Virus record (IMG/VR): IMGVR_UViG_2920277478_000005
Span: 687 to 64,686 of that record
Length of the DNA stretch: 64,000 nucleotides
Source of the DNA: a virus
Taxonomy: Duplodnaviria; Caudoviricetes
Direction: 5' to 3' (one strand)
The position numbers and the translations under genes were made by a program. Shown here piece after piece: positions 30,843-38,475 of this stretch (its first letter is position 1; the number at the start of each line of letters is the position of its first letter). Below the pieces are notes generated by a model. That model saw only the letters and a program-made list of their open reading frames with translations. It was not told the origin of the DNA and made no database searches.

Positions 30843-32309
30843 TCAGCCCCAATAATTGTCTTTTGTCAGCTCCTGCAATTCTTTAACTCCAGGTGCTGTA
30901 CCTGTGTGTTTCTTGATCTTTCCGAGATACAATGCCAAAGCAAGAGCATCTGCCCGGTCAGGGGAATCAAGACCCCTTTTCTTCATTTCTTTTTTTGATT
31001 CGATTTCAAGCTTTCCGTTACTCGCCATTGTATATTTTCTGGAGGAAAGCTGGCCGATTGTCTGCTCATCGTCTTCAATTACAATCTGCTTGTTATCCAG
31101 AAGGTCTCGCATACTGGCCCACATGGCGGTGGTCAGGTTATTGTACCTTTCAGCTGCGTCTTTACCCGCTGCCGTATCGGTCTCAATCTTTTCTGCTGCA
31201 TTTATCGGAATAATCTGCATCTTGTGAAGCTTCTGTTCTTTCCGGACTTCCTTTAGTCGGTCGGTAACACCTCCACCAAGGCCGGTATCATCAATCTGTA
31301 CATACACCTTGCCTTCATACTTTGAATATTCTCTGTATATCTTCTTGAATTCCTTTACGATGTCACCTACAGTGGCCATCAGGTTCTGTCCTCGCCTGTT
31401 TCGGACTATTTTGCAATGACCATGATAATTACGATATATGATCGTTTCATCATCTCCGAAACGGGCCACATCCACCCCCAGTGATACAAACTGCATCCCG
31501 TCCGTATCATCAAGTTCTAGCAATTTGCTACTGCACTGCTCGATCAGGCTTAACGGAATAAATACATCATCTTCCTGATTCGGAAATTCTCCACGGACAC
31601 GGACACGCACTACGTTTGAATCCCATCCATACTTCCTTATGAGCGAATCAATATTTTCTTTGTTTGTTCTGCTGCTGTCTGCAGATGATACAGTGTGGCA
31701 TTTATACAGTGCCCTGTCTCTGGTATGTGAATCATAAAATGTTCCAGATGTTCGTGTTGGGTTTCCGCACAGAAGAAGTTTATTGTTTGCTCCAGATAAG
31801 GTACCAAGGATAGCCTCCATGATCGGATCCGCAACACCGGAAGCTTCATCAACGATAAAAAGCATGTTATCTTCATGGAAGCCTTGCATGTTCTCTGGCT
31901 TTGTAGCAGTCCTGGCAACACCAAACCAACGCTTTTCATTGCCGACCATATAAACATAGGTCTTTGTCCATTTCAGAAGCATGGAGAGCAACTCAGACTT
32001 GCTCATCCACTTAGAAATCTCAGACCAGAGGACATCGTGCAACTGCTGTTTGGTTGGTGCTGTCGCAACGATTCTTGGATATGGGAAACAGGTAATAAAC
32101 CACAGGAACACTGCTGCCTCAAGACCAGTCTTTCCTACACCCTGTCCAGATTTAATACTGACCTTCGGGTTTGCCGCCAAATCTCTTGCAGCTTCCGCCT
32201 GCCATTCATCAGGTTCAAAGCTGAGCACCTCCCGGAAGAACATAACCGGATCATTTCGCCACAGCGGTATGCTTTCATCAAGGAATTCAGAGAACTGAAT
32301 ATCATCCAT
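30843..32309 (-). CDS. Terminase large subunit
   Basis: SGQGVGKT Walker A, IVDEASG Walker B, GVDVARFGDD and SPDRADA nuclease motifs. Confidence 0.95.
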   Translation of the reverse strand: MDDIQFSEFLDESIPLWRNDPVMFFREVLSFEPDEWQAEAARDLAANPKVSIKSGQGVGKTGLEAAVFLWFITCFPYPRIVATAPTKQQLHDVLWSEISKWMSKSELLSMLLKWTKTYVYMVGNEKRWFGVARTATKPENMQGFHEDNMLFIVDEASGVADPIMEAILGTLSGANNKLLLCGNPTRTSGTFYDSHTRDRALYKCHTVSSADSSRTNKENIDSLIRKYGWDSNVVRVRVRGEFPNQEDDVFIPLSLIEQCSSKLLELDDTDGMQFVSLGVDVARFGDDETIIYRNYHGHCKIVRNRRGQNLMATVGDIVKEFKKIYREYSKYEGKVYVQIDDTGLGGGVTDRLKEVRKEQKLHKMQIIPINAAEKIETDTAAGKDAAERYNNLTTAMWASMRDLLDNKQIVIEDDEQTIGQLSSRKYTMASNGKLEIESKKEMKKRGLDSPDRADALALALYLGKIKKHTGTAPGVKELQELTKDNYWG

Positions 32310-33102
32310 CTTTGTTCTCTCCTTCCCTTGCTTTTACCACAGCTTCGGCCCATGCACGAACAACCTCATTGCCCTTGCTTTCTCCAGCTATCTTCTGCTT
32401 TTCAAGTCTCAGCTTCGCAAGTGCTTCAATAGCCTTGGTCTTCTTTGACTGTACAGTTGACAGCTCTTTTTCAAGTCTGGCAATCATATTGTCCTTGTTT
32501 TCCATTGTGGTTTGCATGTTATACATATCTCCCGGCAGACGTTCTTCAGCAGATATTTTCTTCTCTATGCGTTCTTCATAGAGATGCTTATCCTCTTCTG
32601 TTTTGAATGTCCTTTTGCTTTCGCTTCGGTTGAATCCATACAGGGATACTTCACCTTTCATGTTCCGGTATTTATTGATTGCAATCATGATCCTTCTTTC
32701 CCTCACGGCAAAGAGCTGAATCTGTTCGATCAGGAGCATTTCTTCATCCATCGGGATATCTTCGATCATATCTTTTTCAGACTCATCAAGGACATCCCAA
32801 TATACAGAGGAATATGCTCCGTGTTTCTCTGCAATCTTATCTCCCGGTTTCAGTGGACCGCCTTTATTTCCAACTGCATTTCTGTTTCCAGGCTGTCCAC
32901 CTTTATGGCGAGCGTTCGTTTTTTTCTTTTGCGAACGTTCGTTTTTCTTTCCTTTTGTCTTTCCGTCCCAATTCTGTGTTGATTTCCACCGCCGAACTGT
33001 GCTGGCCGGGACGTCCAACTTCTTGGCAATGTCAACAAGTTTCATCCCGTTCTTATACATTTCCTCAGCTTCAATGCTGTTGGGACTTCTTGCCCTTGCC
33101 AA
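32302..33102 (-). CDS. Terminase small subunit
   Basis: MARARSP...HTH...GGQPGNRNA...KHGAYS. Confidence 0.88.
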   Translation of the reverse strand: MARARSPNSIEAEEMYKNGMKLVDIAKKLDVPASTVRRWKSTQNWDGKTKGKKNERSQKKKTNARHKGGQPGNRNAVGNKGGPLKPGDKIAEKHGAYSSVYWDVLDESEKDMIEDIPMDEEMLLIEQIQLFAVRERRIMIAINKYRNMKGEVSLYGFNRSESKRTFKTEEDKHLYEERIEKKISAEERLPGDMYNMQTTMENKDNMIARLEKELSTVQSKKTKAIEALAKLRLEKQKIAGESKGNEVVRAWAEAVVKAREGENKDG

Positions 33103-33142: not shown

Positions 33143-33170
33143 AAAAGGGAGAGGTTGCACTCCCTCTCCC
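33143..33170 (-). terminator. Putative terminator closing the accessory operon
   Basis: GGGAGAGG-N8-CCTCTCCC-TTTT on minus strand. Confidence 0.55.
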
Positions 33171-33201: not shown

Positions 33202-33723
33202 TTAAATTTTTGTGATAAATTCAGCTTTTGAATAGCCTGTCACCCCTTTTGTCATCATCTTCAAAAAGTCTTCTTTTGAGAAATCAGACAATCGGAAGAT
33301 CTCTTCCGGCCTCATTCCAAGCTGTTTGCTTATTTCTTCTACGGTTTTGCCATCGTCCATAAGTTCTTTAATGATTTTTTTCATCGGTTCGAGCAAATGT
33401 GTACCTCTTGCCCTGTTATGCGTGACAGTACCGTAAATATCCTCTGAATGCTCCTTGTGCTCCACAACAACCACCGGTACTTTTCCGTCGAGTTTAGAAC
33501 GTAATGGTTCCATTCCTGCGACCGTCCATCTGTGGAATCCGTCAATAATGGTCATGTCGGGACGAACAACAATAGGAAGTGTCCATCCGTTTGTGAGAAT
33601 AGATTGTATGAGCAGTTTCAGATTCTCTTTCGAAACTTTGTTCGGGTTGTAGTCATTTGGCTTTAATGAATCCCTGTTTACCCATTGCAAGGTAGATAAT
33701 GGTGCTGATAATTTATTATCCAT
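33202..33723 (-). CDS. ParB/Srx-fold protein, IbrB-like
   Basis: LKPNDYNPN, GWTLPIVV, IIDGFHRW, TVTHNRARG. Confidence 0.85.
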   Translation of the reverse strand: MDNKLSAPLSTLQWVNRDSLKPNDYNPNKVSKENLKLLIQSILTNGWTLPIVVRPDMTIIDGFHRWTVAGMEPLRSKLDGKVPVVVVEHKEHSEDIYGTVTHNRARGTHLLEPMKKIIKELMDDGKTVEEISKQLGMRPEEIFRLSDFSKEDFLKMMTKGVTGYSKAEFITKI

Positions 33724-34858
33724 GTCGTTCTCCTTTCTTCGCATCACTGATGTAACGTCCATATATTCTCTGGTACAATGCCCGGAATGCCCTCATTTTG
33801 GGATCACCGGATATCAGTCCTTCGTATATATGCTTATAATCTGCATCTGTTGCTATGGCTGATACCGACATAAAGAAGTTGCGGTATCGTTCTGCCACAT
33901 GCCTTTTATGCGGAGTATCAAAGAATACGTCCATGTGGTTAAATAAATAAATCAGCTCCTGCCGATAATCTTTCTGTTCCTGCCCTTTTTCAGCTTCTTT
34001 CCTTTTTCTGGAGCTTCGGCCGAACATCTCGCTGTCCCAGTACAGGGCTGCAAGATAGGCATTTGGTTCTCTCCGAATGATCCTCTCCATGAGGTCCGGA
34101 TAATATTCATTCATCTTCACGAGGCTTCTGGCCGTATCAACAGAAAAGAACTGAGATACTCTCATCTGCCTCTTGCTTGAACCAGACTGCCAGAGAAACA
34201 GATATATCTCCGGGATATCGACATGGTTTCTCAGAAGAAACAGCCATACATCATTATCTGTCCAGTCATAGATCGGAAATACCTGCTTTTTCGCAGTCAT
34301 TTTGTTCCCTGCTTTTGTCATTGATGCAATATTCTGAAGCCTCTGCACCGACTCTGCAGTTCGGATTCCAACCATTGTAATGCCTGACACAGTTGTTCTT
34401 GGCAGAAAATCCTGATAAGCATCGATCCTCGGCCGTAACAGCCTGTGGTTCCTTATTGCAAAGGAAGGTGGCTGCCGTACCCAGACATCCTGTTTTGTGG
34501 AATCCCAGCAGATAAAGGTTTCATCGTTCGACAGTTCATTGAAGCAGTTGAAGTGTTTTACTTCCACGCAAAACCATTCGAACTTCGCCCCCATCATCAT
34601 AAAGATGCGGCGCCATTTTCTTGTCATATCTTCCATGCACGGAAATATTGCTTCTTCATCTATGAACTGTACGGTAAGCTGCTTCATATTGATCTCGCCT
34701 CGGTTGGCCAGATTCACCATCAGCTGTGCCACACACAAGCTGTCTTTTCCGCCACTGAAGGAAAAGAACACTGGCAGGCCATTTCCAAATACATTTTTTA
34801 TTCGGATTTCCGCAGCCCTCACAACATCAATGTTTGATTCGCAGCGTTTTACAGCCAT
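33716..34858 (-). CDS. PAPS-reductase-family PP-loop protein, IbrA-like
   Basis: FSFSGGKDS, FIDEE, VGIRTAESVQR, FPIYDW. Confidence 0.88.
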   Translation of the reverse strand: MAVKRCESNIDVVRAAEIRIKNVFGNGLPVFFSFSGGKDSLCVAQLMVNLANRGEINMKQLTVQFIDEEAIFPCMEDMTRKWRRIFMMMGAKFEWFCVEVKHFNCFNELSNDETFICWDSTKQDVWVRQPPSFAIRNHRLLRPRIDAYQDFLPRTTVSGITMVGIRTAESVQRLQNIASMTKAGNKMTAKKQVFPIYDWTDNDVWLFLLRNHVDIPEIYLFLWQSGSSKRQMRVSQFFSVDTARSLVKMNEYYPDLMERIIRREPNAYLAALYWDSEMFGRSSRKRKEAEKGQEQKDYRQELIYLFNHMDVFFDTPHKRHVAERYRNFFMSVSAIATDADYKHIYEGLISGDPKMRAFRALYQRIYGRYISDAKKGERHG

Positions 34859-35514
34859 ATTTTCTCACCGCATTTAGGGCAGACAACAAACCTTCTGGTC
34901 TCTGTGATCTCCGGTTCTGTTTCAGTGGTACTCTGTCCTTCTGCTGTCGAATTATCCGAAGTGTTCGGCTTTTCCGAACTGTTCTCCGAATTATTGTCCG
35001 GTGTTTCTTCTGGCGTTGCTTTCTGCCCTCTCTTTTCATTTGCCTCTTTCATCTTCTGAATCTCAGATTCATCCAATGTGCCGTACTCCGAGAGCTTGTC
35101 AGTCACTTCATCTGCATCAGCGACCATCTGCTGTAAAATTTCTTCATCATATCCAGGGATATCCAGATCCCCCTGCAGTTCCTCAAGGAACTCATTCAGG
35201 GTTTCCAGATTGTCAATTCCAAGAGCATAGGTCTTATTATCTGCTATCATAAGCTTCTTCTTATCATTCTCTGAAAGCCCCGTCTTTACATATACGGTTG
35301 CTTCCTGATATCCAAGGCTTACCATAGCTTCGTATAAGCCGTTGCCGATCAAGATCGTATCGTCTTCATCCACAACAATTGCTCTGGTCTGTCCAAACTT
35401 TTCAAGGGAGCGTTTCAGCTCTCTGATCTGCTGTTCGGAATGTATTCTAACGTTTTTCTTGGGATGTTTAAGGGCATCCAGCCTTTTTGTAGTAACGTTC
35501 ATTTTGTCCTCCAT
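34849..35514 (-). CDS. ParB/Srx-fold protein with C-terminal CPKC
   Basis: KNVRIH...SLEKFGQTRAIVVDE...IGNG...MIADNK. Confidence 0.85.
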   Translation of the reverse strand: MEDKMNVTTKRLDALKHPKKNVRIHSEQQIRELKRSLEKFGQTRAIVVDEDDTILIGNGLYEAMVSLGYQEATVYVKTGLSENDKKKLMIADNKTYALGIDNLETLNEFLEELQGDLDIPGYDEEILQQMVADADEVTDKLSEYGTLDESEIQKMKEANEKRGQKATPEETPDNNSENSSEKPNTSDNSTAEGQSTTETEPEITETRRFVVCPKCGEKIWL

Positions 35515-35547
35515 TTCTGAAGGGCAATGGCTTCCGGCTGCAACCGG

Positions 35548-36324
35548 CTATTTGATAGCTTTTAAAAATTCTCTGGCTCCATCGAAATGCTGTGCTGCAT
35601 TTTCAACTATGGTCTGATCAATGTCGTAAATTTCTTTCCAGCCCTGCTGTTCTGTCTCCATGTACTGTCTGGCAGGCCATGGATGTGTACCGCATAAATA
35701 TCCTTTCTCCCAGTCATATATGGGCGGGAGCTTCACATCATAATAGTGAATGTATGCAAGGATATCTTCGTGCCTCCACTCTGCAAGAGGGCTGTATCTG
35801 GTGATTCCGGCTGAATTAGTGTAAATATTATCTTTTCCAACATAATTGCCGTCTGCCTTTCTGCGTCCGAGCAGAAGTATTTCCAGCTGATGCTCTTTAT
35901 AATATCGTGCCTGTCCCCTGTGCTGTACGATATGGAACCACTGTGCTGCCTTATTGCTTTTATCCGGGAACAACATATCCGGATGCTTTTTCAGCCATTC
36001 CATATCCTGTCCGGTATTGATAACCTCAAGGCCAGAAGGTTTATTCTGCTCTATCCATGCAATAAATGCCGGATATTCCAGATTGCACCTTACAAGGACG
36101 CTCTGATCAATGCCGGCTTTCTCGCATATCTCTCCAAGTACCAGGGAGTCTTTTCCCGCACTCCATGCATAGGCTGCCTTTTTCCCTTTGCATTTCTCTT
36201 TGATGTCTTTCACTGTCTTTTTCACAAGGGAATCCAGTTCTTTCTTTGACACCGTCTCTTCAATGTGATCAAGCGCATTCTTCCAATCTTCATTATTTCG
36301 AACGGATTGTTTTCTACCGAGCAT
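35548..36324 (-). CDS. Second PP-loop (PAPS-reductase-like) protein
   Basis: AYAWSAGKDS, LLGRRKADGN, YSPLAEW. Confidence 0.8.
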   Translation of the reverse strand: MLGRKQSVRNNEDWKNALDHIEETVSKKELDSLVKKTVKDIKEKCKGKKAAYAWSAGKDSLVLGEICEKAGIDQSVLVRCNLEYPAFIAWIEQNKPSGLEVINTGQDMEWLKKHPDMLFPDKSNKAAQWFHIVQHRGQARYYKEHQLEILLLGRRKADGNYVGKDNIYTNSAGITRYSPLAEWRHEDILAYIHYYDVKLPPIYDWEKGYLCGTHPWPARQYMETEQQGWKEIYDIDQTIVENAAQHFDGAREFLKAIK

Positions 36325-37693
36325 AGCGTCTCTCCTTTCCGGAAGCGGCCAAGGCGATAATTCCGCTCAACAGGACTGTCAGCAAGCTTCCTAGTGTTTT
36401 ATATGGTCCACTATTCAAAACGCTGCCGTAGGCGAATACAGGAAGCCCTACAGCCAGTGCAGTAACCACACCTGCGATAATCCCTTTTGCATTCAGTCTT
36501 ATCCCTTTCAGTGTCATGACTGTTGGAAGTAATGTTGACGCCCTCAGTGTGCCATAAAACAGAAACAGATGTGTCACTGTAATTCCCGGGATATTTGCAA
36601 TCAGAATGCCAGCAATCAGAAGCACTGCCATTGCAGCTCTGGTCTTCCTGATGTCTTTTCCTCCTGCAATATCTGTCGTAAGCGAAGACACTGCGCACAG
36701 GTTGCTATCCACTGTAGACAGCAAGCCGGAAACAATCATGAAAAGGAACGGCAATACTGCCCAGGACGGGAAAAAGTGGCGGATCAATTCAAAATTGATG
36801 ATTCCAAGGTTCTGTGCCTGATATCCTGCACCGGCTCCCATAAATCCAAGGATTCCCATTGACAGCGGAACCATTGCAAAAAGAACTGCTCCAAGAAGAA
36901 ACGCTCTTCCCAGCTTCTCTTTTTTTACTGCAAACGCCCTCTGCCAGAAGCTCTGATCTCCAAACGGACCGGATAAAAGTCCGATTGTTGTCGGAAGCCC
37001 AAAGGCTAAGAAAATCTCTACTCCTTTTCCAGAGAAGAGCGTTGTGCAGTCTCCTGATATACCGCTCAGGCCCTGTATAATGCCCTGTGTTCCTGTATTT
37101 CTTACTCCGAATATTACAAATAGGCTACATGCAATAAGCATGAATACCATTTGAATAGCATCTGTAAGCATAGATGCTTTAATTCCAGAGAACAGCGAAT
37201 AGGAAATTGCTATACATGCAAGCAGAATTGTCATGGTTTTGAACGAAATTCCTGTTACTGCACTAAGAATCTGGCTTCCCGCAAGAAGCTGAACTCCTGT
37301 TGACAGAACAGACAGTCCGATCAGCTGAAAGAGGTAAACTCTTTTCACTCCATCCGATTTGTATTTTTCTTTCATGTAACCAGACAGTGTCATTCCTTCC
37401 GGCATTTCCTTTCGTATCCTCTTTGCGAAAGGAATGAATATCACAAGGCAAAGAGCATTCGGGACCAGAAACCAAAATAAACCGACCCATCCGGTGGAAT
37501 ATGCTTTTTCAGTTGATACAAATAATGCCGGAGCCCAGATCCACGTTGCCGCAATGCTGAGAGCCGACATCAGCCAGTTTTCAGAACGGCTTCCAACGCA
37601 GAAGCGTTCCACATTTTTTTCTTTCTTTGTCAGGATCACTGTTGCCAGGATCATAATAACTGCATATACAAATAATATTGTTACTCCATTCAT
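36314..37693 (-). CDS. Sodium:solute symporter (SSS) family transporter, DUR3/choline-like
   Basis: About 13 hydrophobic helices; SIAATWIW, GPFGDQSFWQRAFA, SGLLSTVDS. Confidence 0.88.
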   Translation of the reverse strand: MNGVTILFVYAVIMILATVILTKKEKNVERFCVGSRSENWLMSALSIAATWIWAPALFVSTEKAYSTGWVGLFWFLVPNALCLVIFIPFAKRIRKEMPEGMTLSGYMKEKYKSDGVKRVYLFQLIGLSVLSTGVQLLAGSQILSAVTGISFKTMTILLACIAISYSLFSGIKASMLTDAIQMVFMLIACSLFVIFGVRNTGTQGIIQGLSGISGDCTTLFSGKGVEIFLAFGLPTTIGLLSGPFGDQSFWQRAFAVKKEKLGRAFLLGAVLFAMVPLSMGILGFMGAGAGYQAQNLGIINFELIRHFFPSWAVLPFLFMIVSGLLSTVDSNLCAVSSLTTDIAGGKDIRKTRAAMAVLLIAGILIANIPGITVTHLFLFYGTLRASTLLPTVMTLKGIRLNAKGIIAGVVTALAVGLPVFAYGSVLNSGPYKTLGSLLTVLLSGIIALAASGKERRYAR

Positions 37694-37767
37694 GCGTAAT
37701 CTCCTCTAAAATATTTTAAAGGAGCATTCCCATCTTTCTATCCTTTCCTCCCTCCCAAGATTGCATT

Positions 37768-37797
37768 AAAAAAGCCACTGGTTTTTCCCCAGTGGCT
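37768..37797 (-). terminator. Promoter-proximal intrinsic terminator
   Basis: AGCCACTGG-N7-CCAGTGGCT-TTTTT on minus strand. Confidence 0.75.
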
Positions 37798-37827
37798 CAT
37801 GGCTTTTGATTAAAATTTTACTCGCAT

Positions 37828-37856
37828 ATCATACACCATTTTCGTTATTAAGTCAA
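37828..37856 (-). promoter_or_regulatory. SigA-type promoter for accessory/late operon
   Basis: TTGACT-N17-TATGAT. Confidence 0.7.
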
Positions 37857-37890
37857 TGTTAAGTTAACAGTTTCCGTTATTCTGATTTTA

Positions 37891-38475
37891 TTAAAAAAAC
37901 TTCAAACCGTCAATTCCGAAAAACAGCGAAGATAAGCGCTCTTTCGCAATTTTGATATCTTCGTATACAGTGACCTTGCTGACCGAAAATTTTTTTGAAA
38001 TTTCTGCAATTGTCATTGGCGTCTTTGATATGTAAAGGGCTTTAATAATCTTATAGCGTCTCTTATCTTTTTCCGATAATTTGCTACAATAGATACGGTA
38101 TACATCAAGCATTTTGTCAATATGCTGCACCATGATAGCGGTTCTTTTGGCCGAAGTTTTGATGCTCTCCACTATGACCTTATCATCTTTCATGGTCATG
38201 ATGTCTTCCAGTACCTCTGTAACCTCCCCTTCCTTGGACTTGTAGACGGCATTTTCGTAGCTCGCCTTTAAAGTTCTGTAATTTCTAAGGAGCAAATCGG
38301 TGTTATGCAAACGACGATCAATCTTCTCCTTCTCGCTTTTTCTCTGCCCTACCATCATTGCATCAGACGCAACCTGTGCGCCGGCAAGGGCAGCCTGCTG
38401 AATCATTGCATCAATTTCCTCTTTTGTCAGTGCTACGAATTGTACTTTTTTCTCTGTGTCCATGCCATACCTCAC
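37891..38475 (-). CDS. Late transcriptional regulator (ArpU/RinA-like, sigma70 region-4 HTH)
   Basis: C-terminal MTIAEISKKFSVSKVTVY HTH; last early gene before late operon. Confidence 0.7.
   Translation of the reverse strand: MRYGMDTEKKVQFVALTKEEIDAMIQQAALAGAQVASDAMMVGQRKSEKEKIDRRLHNTDLLLRNYRTLKASYENAVYKSKEGEVTEVLEDIMTMKDDKVIVESIKTSAKRTAIMVQHIDKMLDVYRIYCSKLSEKDKRRYKIIKALYISKTPMTIAEISKKFSVSKVTVYEDIKIAKERLSSLFFGIDGLKFF

Follow-up and report, generated by a model that had tools for sequence, protein, structure and literature searches.

An SSS-family transporter kept together with an IbrA/IbrB-type pair upstream of the terminase genes in Clostridial prophages: a candidate import, activate, attach module

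The provirus record IMGVR_UViG_2920277478_000005 of IMG/VR is 64.7 kb long and estimated to be 98% complete, and the window analysed here is a 64,000-nt stretch of it (positions 687 to 64,686 of the record). Within the window, between the gene of a putative late regulator and the terminase genes, stands a block of five co-directional genes in which a secondary transporter of the sodium:solute symporter (SSS) family is joined with two PP-loop proteins and two ParB-like proteins. The handles T, P1, B1, P2 and B2 are used for them in what follows, in the order of the genes:

36314-37693, minus strand: T, SSS-family (LeuT-fold) secondary transporter, 459 aa (PF00474, phrog_20720)
35548-36324, minus strand: P1, short protein with a PP-loop (SAGKDS) and the 3'-phosphoadenosine 5'-phosphosulfate (PAPS) reductase fold, 258 aa (PF01507, phrog_424)
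34849-35514, minus strand: B1, ParB-N-fold protein, 221 aa (phrog_620, 'ParB-like')
33716-34858, minus strand: P2, IbrA-like PP-loop enzyme (SGGKDS) with a C-terminal helical domain, 380 aa (PF01507, phrog_2302)
33202-33723, minus strand: B2, IbrB-like ParB/Srx protein, started at an internal Met (PF02195, phrog_2159)

This layout had been described in an earlier sequence-only reading of the stretch, which had also placed the block just upstream of the terminase, and both points held, terS and terL being found directly downstream. The motifs it had quoted were all recovered in the alignments, i.e., ATWIWAPA and GDQSFWQR in T, SAGKDS in P1 and SGGKDS in P2, and re-measurement of the junctions returned its figures of three overlaps of 8-11 bp and one gap of 33 bp: T and P1 overlap by 11 nt, B1 and P2 by 10 nt, and P2 and B2 by 8 nt, with 33 nt between P1 and B1. 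The last of these overlaps is counted from the start at 33723; the first ATG of B2 would give 33202-33762, and its homologues begin at the internal Met. Start/stop overlaps of 8-11 nt suggest that translation of the genes is coupled.

Relatives of T were taken from IMG/VR (111 contigs, of which the best 80 were kept) and from the GTDB species genomes (164 matches, of which the best 80 were kept), and their loci were searched with all five proteins by tblastn. Counts were made on the 130 loci in which T is full-length and the sequence extends 3.4 kb or more beyond it on the downstream side. In 125 of these 130, B1, P2 and B2 were all kept, a very strong co-conservation that spans 46-100% identity in T. 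P1 was also present in 109 of the 125 complete modules, in the order P1-B1-P2-B2, and the other 16 loci had B1-P2-B2 only; P1 is thus an optional and dispensable member. A lack of conservation between transporter and enzymes in other phages had been named beforehand as the outcome that would count against a joint role, and the co-occurrence search gave the opposite result. The five genes are one conserved unit and not a chance neighbourhood. The five exceptions were two evident internal deletions (L033, L160), two loci in which B2 had no match (L013, L045) and one in which B1 lies upstream of T (L082). In the first deletion variant (L033, 3703-6260), a B2 fragment and then terS come immediately after T, and in the second (L160, 8001-10978) a P1 fragment is joined to a B2 fragment, i.e., the enzymes occasionally decay while T remains intact.

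The hosts named for these loci include Blautia, Ruminococcus, Acetatifactor, Enterocloster, Oscillospiraceae, Anaerotruncus, Agathobaculum and Clostridioides difficile, as well as other Lachnospiraceae. Candidate lysogens among the matches are the Lachnospiraceae isolates MGYG-HGUT-00092/00137, Otoolea muris DSM 111138, Acetatifactor muris DSM 23669, Anaerotruncus colihominis DSM 17241 and the C. difficile strain of OX246690. Allele histories within the unit are mixed: in one locus (L004) the identities to the block described here are 99% for T, 90% for B1, 100% for P2 and 66% for terL, and since the identities of the genes are uncoupled in this way, recombination appears to shuffle alleles while the composition is retained. 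T was found in only 2 of 301 sampled genomes of the host family (E<=1e-60); it is phage-restricted and not a host housekeeping gene. Among isolated phages, megablast with the block returned nothing, and tblastn located T, and likewise P1, in no more than a single unannotated record of a faecal phage. Full-length B1 was found in only five isolated-phage records (Taranis twice, Pioen, MT836198 and MT835903), at least four of which have a membrane protein in the position of T, that of MT836198 being T itself and those of the two Taranis records and Pioen being of a different, Taranis type; the fifth, MT835903, is unannotated.

The last two genes of the block had been likened to IbrA and IbrB, a likeness that the profile searches confirmed. 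P2 matched phrog_2302 (E 5e-98) and the PAPS_reduct family PF01507, and by tblastn was 26% identical over 86% of its length (E 1e-23) to IbrA of Escherichia phage PhiR5_2, in which the IbrB gene follows IbrA; B2 was 37% identical to that IbrB (E 2e-30). Hidden Markov models (HMMs) made from the Clostridial set scored 173 bits (P2) and 137 bits (B2) against IbrA and IbrB of E. coli phage, and 163 and 133 bits against those of an S. thermophilus phage. The motifs that P2 and IbrA have in common run along the whole length, including the part C-terminal of the PP-loop domain, and B2, which matched PF02195 ParB_N at 27.6 bits (cut-off 26.3) and phrog_2159 at E 1e-73, has intact DGFHR and HNRARG motifs (DGxHR and NRARG are invariant in 11 sequences) and a C-terminal helix-turn-helix (HTH). 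We assign P2 to the IbrA family and B2 to the IbrB family. They share with the pairs of E. coli prophages and phages the order IbrA then overlapping IbrB (here by 8 nt), the PP-loop, PIYDW, RVxxxF and DGxHR/NRARG. DUF3440, the Pfam C-terminal domain of IbrA, had no match in P2 at E<=0.01, and the C-terminal helical domain of P2 (about residues 250-380) had no matches other than designed helical proteins. The classical IbrAB unit consists of two genes and includes no transporter, whereas here the pair is joined with T, B1 and usually P1; a relative of P2 is held by 222 isolated-phage records, and in the loci of these that were inspected IbrA/IbrB stood alone, without T, B1 or P1.

The AlphaFold2 model of P2 (mean pLDDT 83.5) places its N-terminal domain closest to the PAPS-reductase-like clade, with VIA Z scores of 15.1 for adenosine 5'-phosphosulfate (APS) reductase, 14.3 for CysD, 14.2 for the PAPS domain of FAD synthase (an FMN adenylyltransferase), and 9-10 for TilS, NcsA, LarE and NadE. 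Many structural neighbours of P2 are sulfur-transfer PP-loop enzymes; no DndC or SspD structure was listed among the Foldseek and VIA neighbours, which has no bearing on their exclusion. That neither PP-loop protein has a Cys cluster or a terminal ECG motif had been noted from the sequence, and the alignments agree, with no Cys cluster conserved across the IbrA family and no conserved ECG-type Cys motif in P1 or P2. An Fe-S cluster in P2 was considered and rejected, as the four Cys that are near-invariant among the Clostridial sequences are not preserved in Taranis gp37, in E. coli IbrA or in the protein of an environmental contig (L081). Identity with the PAPS/APS reductase CysH was likewise rejected: the catalytic Cys of ECG(L/I)H has no conserved counterpart, TIGR00434 and TIGR02057 gave about 22 bits against cut-offs of 165-254, and it is the fold alone that they have in common.

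These data bear on phosphorothioation of DNA of the Dnd/Ssp kind, with T importing a sulfur compound. The likeness is to DndB/DndC and SspD, where a ParB-fold protein has as its partner an ATP pyrophosphatase with a PP-loop and the PAPS-reductase fold acting on DNA, and in addition to its sulfur-transfer neighbours P2 had weak matches to DndC and BrxP (PADLOC DndC, 30 bits; TIGR03183, 22.6 bits). The second score is far under the cut-off of 290. DndC carries a Cys triad and a Cys dyad (PMC10853773), of which P2 has no conserved counterpart, and in searches of the five block genes, to the exclusion of the rest of the prophage, PADLOC and NCBIfam gave no match to a cysteine desulfurase (DndA), DndD or DndE; a transporter is present instead. 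As it has no conserved Cys set and its model scores are far below the cut-offs, P2 is neither DndC nor a PAPS reductase.

P1 and B1 do not repeat this pair. The block does not hold two equivalent sets of a PP-loop protein and a ParB protein: P1 and P2, and likewise B1 and B2, are barely similar, P1 is absent from 16 loci and B1 lacks the GxxR motif. Given the low similarity, an origin of P1-B1 and P2-B2 by recent duplication was rejected. P1 matched PF01507 (E 3e-12) and phrog_424 (E 6e-34), and the Cys of its 'CGTH' motif varies among homologues. B1 had no Pfam match; it matched phrog_620 'ParB-like' (E 3e-46), phrog_498, a ParB-methyltransferase family (E 6e-29), and PADLOC MTase_II (E 3e-12). 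Its AlphaFold2 model (pLDDT 76) has the ParB-N fold, with CTP-type ParB, Noc and KorB as the best Foldseek matches (E 2e-5) and SerK and sulfiredoxin (Srx) lower (E 0.01-0.06, about 85 residues covered); with the NCBIfam SerK model, for which the cut-off is 380, ParB proteins of related loci reached 21-23 bits. At the place of the ParB GxxR, B1 has GNGL (AGNGLYEA, 63 sequences), so the GxxRxxA pattern of Box II is lacking, and after an acidic linker the protein ends in a CPxCG that is invariant. Neither ParA nor parS was found in its context. B1 is probably a non-catalytic ParB-like subunit.

Two kinds of known systems resemble this arrangement. The N-domain of B1 most closely resembles the ParB domain found in phage DNA methyltransferases, i.e., of ParB-methyltransferase fusions, and in DpdA/DpdB a ParB-fold NTPase stands alongside a DNA-modifying enzyme, DpdB being the ParB-fold partner of DNA modification (PMC12839542). 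The block differs from both in that the partner is a PP-loop protein and not a transglycosylase or methyltransferase, and in that B1 lacks GxxR.

T belongs to the SSS family by PF00474 SSF (E 1e-19, 71 bits against a cut-off of 22.8, covering residues 31-408 of 459), scored 111 bits with TIGR00813, under its stricter cut-off of 184, and matched phrog_20720, annotated as of unknown function, along its entire length (E 1e-236). A profile of T relatives searched against the PDB found DUR3 (E 8e-27) and the bacterial choline-type SLC5A7 (E 1e-22) ahead of vSGLT (2e-12), with SGLT, NIS and SMVT also well behind. An identification as the pantothenate permease PanF was rejected, TIGR02119 giving 80 bits against a cut-off of 328; the names in ESM Atlas are automatic. 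T has in common with DUR3 and CHT1/SLC5A7, its best matches among solved structures, the W-x-W of transmembrane helix 1 (TM1) and the D-x-x-(Y/F)-W of TM6, but it is shorter and has no C-terminal domain.

The urea-binding residues of AtDUR3 are W93, W95, T98, Y117, Q124, N305, Y315, W338 and Y461 (PMC11840088). In the HMMER alignment of T to 9j7c, W93 and W95 are kept as W51 and W53, whereas T98, Y117, Q124, N305, Y315, W338 and Y461 become A56, F75, C82, L239, F249, F272 and F377, i.e., the Trp pair is retained and all polar ligands are lost. The sequence-only reading had seen in T the DUR3 (urea/polyamine) and choline branch of the family; the placement stands, but not urea as the solute, and because all of the polar DUR3 ligands are replaced T is unlikely to be a urea carrier. 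The pocket positions are nearly invariant in an alignment of 67 sequences that includes relatives at 24-35% identity. They would form an aromatic or hydrophobic cage without polar urea ligands, for which an organic cation, an aromatic compound or a hydrophobic acid is the more likely substrate. Also nearly invariant among the 67 are S326 and T327 in SGLLSTVDSNL, which we take, from the motif and not from a structural superposition, to be the Na2-site pair of TM8 that equals S340/T341 of PutP. T is probably Na+-coupled.

The regions on either side of the block have these features:

37891-38475, minus strand: putative late-gene regulator, 194 aa, with a C-terminal HTH (PF08279 HTH_11, E 8e-9; phrog_1558, E 6e-54)
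37828-37856, minus strand: sigma-70-like promoter, TTGACT-17-TATGAT, 10/12 consensus matches
37772-37798, minus strand: strong intrinsic-terminator hairpin between promoter and T, 10 bp with 6 GC, followed by a U-tract
37701-37724, minus strand: hairpin sequestering the Shine-Dalgarno (SD) sequence of T, in which the anti-SD CTCCTT pairs with the ribosome-binding site AGAGGAG
33147-33170: hairpin rich in GC between B2 and terS, whose U-tract is weak on the gene strand, CCTTTTGC
32302-33102, minus strand: terS, directly downstream of the block (NF040601 TerS, 135 bits; phrog_1889)
30843-32309, minus strand: terL, following terS (phrog_2)

A regulator gene lies upstream of T in most loci of the IMG/VR and GTDB sets, and in phage Taranis the gene at the equivalent position is annotated as a RinA-like activator. 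From the regulator gene to T, the leader has the promoter, a GTAAAAT..TA.ATC box, the terminator hairpin, a purine-rich decoy (GGAAAGGAG) and the anti-SD/SD hairpin. All of these elements recur in loci whose T is only 57-80% identical, the promoter hexamers and the box among them; an equivalent hairpin with a T-run is present in the leaders of many related loci, and the two sides of the anti-SD/SD hairpin covary across loci (CTCCTT/AAGGAG versus CTCCTCCA/TGGAGGA). No Rfam family or riboswitch matched in the leader or the block. A five-codon open reading frame, ATG GGA ATG CTC CTT TAA, overlaps the anti-SD in the T leader (37701-37860, minus strand). The layout resembles that of a constitutive late promoter whose terminator is read through by a phage antiterminator, with the block as the first late genes, and it suggests late-operon antitermination together with translational gating of T; judged by layout, the block is probably the head of the late (packaging) operon.

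A promoter and a terminator of its own had been attributed to the block, and this was only partly upheld. The promoter is there and the downstream hairpin exists, but the U-tract of the latter is weak and only part of the family has it: loci of the Lachnospiraceae type have it, and those with a spacer of 40-60 nt do not. The two hairpins between the promoter and T (37798-37772 and 37724-37701) had been overlooked. Since the layout is that of a late promoter followed by a terminator, and the spacer hairpin occurs only in part of the family, a separate transcription unit is doubtful.

The position that T occupies is filled by other proteins in related phages. In the cultured Faecalibacterium phages Taranis and Pioen, the gene of a RinA-like activator is followed by that of a 333-aa polytopic membrane protein and then by B1, IbrA, IbrB, two small genes and terS; here B1, IbrA and IbrB score 241, 455 and 298 bits with the block HMMs. 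The 333-aa protein of Taranis (gp35) has no Pfam family and stands in the same slot as T; homology to T was not established by HMM (E 9) or by hhalign (probabilities of 4% and 11%, E 0.0027), and its ESM-Atlas feature neighbours alone hint at SSF. In an environmental IbrA lineage, whose members are 40-100% identical to the L081 protein, the order is B1-X-P2-B2, where X stands for T, for a solute-binding protein of the TctC family (E 1e-52), for a cupin, or for a cupin together with an aldehyde dehydrogenase (E 5e-104). The occupants of slot X all serve small-molecule supply or conversion, and from TctC and the aldehyde dehydrogenase there is a hint that the substrate is a carboxylic acid. One environmental viral contig (L289, 43-4242) has two B1-like genes, a TctC-family solute-binding protein, and IbrA-like and IbrB-like genes; a periplasmic binding protein is there part of the IbrAB module itself. 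We regard the substitution as the strongest indirect support for the slot delivering a substrate to IbrA/IbrB.

More distant relatives of T, at about 250-310 bits to the profile, occur in varied operons. On integrative elements they are translationally coupled to STAND/NACHT NTPases (L173/L174, 7001-8425; L262, 6001-7470; L263, 4863-6332), one of which contains an FGE-sulfatase domain and has a guanidinoacetate-methyltransferase-like gene next in line; DruA or RelA_SpoT genes lie nearby, and these operons may represent an undescribed defence-type operon with an SSS-like membrane component. In aquatic phage contigs (L171, 476-3485; L258, 5318-8913), a conserved protein of about 230 aa with an HxD...H (double-stranded beta-helix-like) pattern is encoded ahead of the T relative and a P-loop (APS-kinase/AAA_33-like) kinase after it, to which L171 adds a small NMN-adenylyltransferase-like protein (a weak match); L258 also has DSPc phosphatase and T4 Rnl1-type RNA ligase genes as neighbours. 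The upstream protein (233 aa) is not P1-like. Elsewhere (L163, 2104-4886), the T relative overlaps by 4 nt a divergent paralogue of an archaeal-type prolyl-tRNA synthetase (ProRS)-like class II synthetase (TIGR00408, 186 bits against a cut-off of 437), and some distant relatives adjoin TrmB regulators. In one further locus (L164, 152-2440), T was called as a 762-aa product whose C-terminal 290 aa open with a lipoprotein-like signal (LLMLPCGLSAQ), probably two fused gene calls or a Bacteroidota-type variant; its four downstream genes encode a 260-aa P1-sized protein with marginal PP-loop matches, two ParB-like proteins and one PAPS_reduct protein. A scan of IMG/VR with the distant relative P0263 returned nothing. 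The T family is therefore a repeated recruit, both of mobile or conflict systems and of activating enzymes that depend on ATP.

The best explanation of the block is that an IbrA/IbrB-type pair (P2, B2) gained a dedicated importer (T), a ParB-like protein (B1) and, in most loci, a second small PP-loop enzyme (P1). We infer that T feeds the enzymes, and to the reading of the block as a single late-expressed functional unit at the head of the late operon that imports, activates and attaches a small molecule we give a probability of roughly 40%. In such a module, T would take up an exogenous small molecule during lytic development, probably an aromatic, hydrophobic, or cationic or carboxylated organic compound and not urea. 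The PAPS-reductase-fold enzymes (P2, and P1 where present) would spend ATP to adenylylate the imported molecule or an acceptor site, the ParB/Srx proteins, of which B1 would be a degenerate adaptor, could contribute NTP-dependent phosphotransfer, targeting to DNA, or both, and the activated group would be joined to a macromolecule, most likely phage DNA just before packaging. DNA as the target is suggested by the fusion of the B1 domain type to phage DNA methyltransferases, the matches of its predicted fold to the DNA clamps ParB, Noc and KorB, the HTH of B2 and the adjacency of terS. The lic-type and NadR/PnuC-type pathways, in which an importer is encoded with enzymes of phosphotransfer and nucleotidyl transfer, are analogous in logic only; their enzyme folds differ and there is no sequence relationship. 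Unlikely is a more specific form, i.e., hypermodification of phage DNA through the phage's own secondary transporter, in which a gut metabolite (an aromatic or aliphatic organic acid or amine) would be imported late and ligated by PP-loop adenylation under the guidance of a ParB fold.

Several points weigh against this reading. Late expression is drawn from layout only, and a ParB/Srx fold need not mean DNA targeting, given that such folds include pure small-molecule and protein enzymes such as SerK and sulfiredoxin. Import is not intrinsic to the IbrA/IbrB family, since many of the 222 isolated-phage records hold the pair with no transporter; homology between T and the membrane protein of Taranis is not demonstrable; and the transporter family is not specific to IbrAB, its distant members residing in quite different operons. 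To our knowledge, the function of IbrA/IbrB has never been explained.

The alternative that survives best, although an unlikely one, is a pathway to a soluble metabolite: T would import a precursor, a ParB/Srx kinase and PAPS-reductase-fold adenylyltransferases or ligases would act on it, and the product would be a nucleotide-linked cofactor or signal, e.g., one restoring a pool depleted by host defence. CysD and the FMN adenylyltransferase, among the nearest folds of P2, make soluble adenylylated products, the ParB/Srx fold includes the free-serine kinase SerK as well as sulfiredoxin, and T relatives are found ahead of the APS-kinase-like kinase and NMN-adenylyltransferase-like protein described above (L171/L172, with a Nudix gene nearby) and overlapping the adenylate-forming ProRS-like enzyme of L163. 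The kinase and NMN-adenylyltransferase matches, however, are weak and far under the family cut-offs, and the kinase of L258 may belong to an RNA-repair set. B1 and B2 are nearer to DNA-binding ParB and to ParB-methyltransferase domains than to SerK/Srx, and a position at the head of the packaging operon fits the processing of DNA.

We hold it improbable that the block is a regulatory module in which T and IbrAB sense or import a solute and thereby tune late-gene expression or the outcome of lysis versus lysogeny. Phage records annotate IbrA/IbrB homologues as co-activators of prophage gene expression, the sole reported IbrAB phenotype, the block directly follows the late regulator and the promoter-terminator leader, and translation of T appears gated by the hairpin over its ribosome-binding site. 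Yet genes under a late promoter cannot easily decide its firing, the catalytic PP-loop and DGxHR motifs are retained, and the co-activator label comes with no known mechanism.

A little less probable again is a device of conflict or exclusion, with T as a membrane effector or gate in superinfection exclusion or counter-defence and nutrient-like transport not the point. It would draw on the NACHT/STAND-coupled relatives on integrative elements, one of them next to a methyltransferase and near DruA; these are only 27-33% identical to T, and the near-invariant pocket, together with the presumed Na+-site Ser-Thr pair of TM8, is what would be expected of a working transporter. In the sister lineage, moreover, a solute-binding protein or metabolic enzymes occupy the slot of T.

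That T is an independent 'moron', giving the lysogen extra nutrient uptake and functionally unrelated to its neighbours, is very unlikely: phage-borne transporters are usually read as auxiliary metabolic genes, and a sigma-70-like promoter lies upstream and a hairpin downstream of the block, but T overlaps P1 by 11 nt, is never apart from B1-P2-B2 in its lineage except in the two deletion variants, has a terminator between it and the promoter, and is essentially absent from host core genomes. Phosphorothioation with an imported sulfur compound is the least likely of all, given the scores and cysteines of P2 described above.

The preferred reading of the block as an importing, activating and attaching module would concern a large group of phages. 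IbrA/IbrB-like pairs are very common and are routinely mis-read as 'PAPS reductase' auxiliary genes; phage 'PAPS reductases' are still treated as genes of sulfur metabolism (PMC12323421). The sequence-only reading had known of no described system with this five-gene composition, and none was found in the searchable literature, which also has no description of a transporter-linked IbrAB module. We know of few phage-encoded secondary transporters within an enzyme operon. A lineage with an obligatory importer, and a sister lineage with a solute-binding protein or enzymes in the same slot, point to a small-molecule substrate for IbrA/IbrB and give a concrete experimental handle on it, and the cultured Faecalibacterium phages hold B1-IbrA-IbrB with a different membrane protein in the slot of T. 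If the hypermodification form of the reading is true, it would disclose the biochemical activity of IbrA/IbrB. The module is abundant in prophages of major human-gut Clostridia (Blautia and other Lachnospiraceae, Oscillospiraceae and C. difficile), and if the DNA or virions of these phages carry a diet- or host-derived metabolite, gut chemistry would be linked to the conflict between phage and host.

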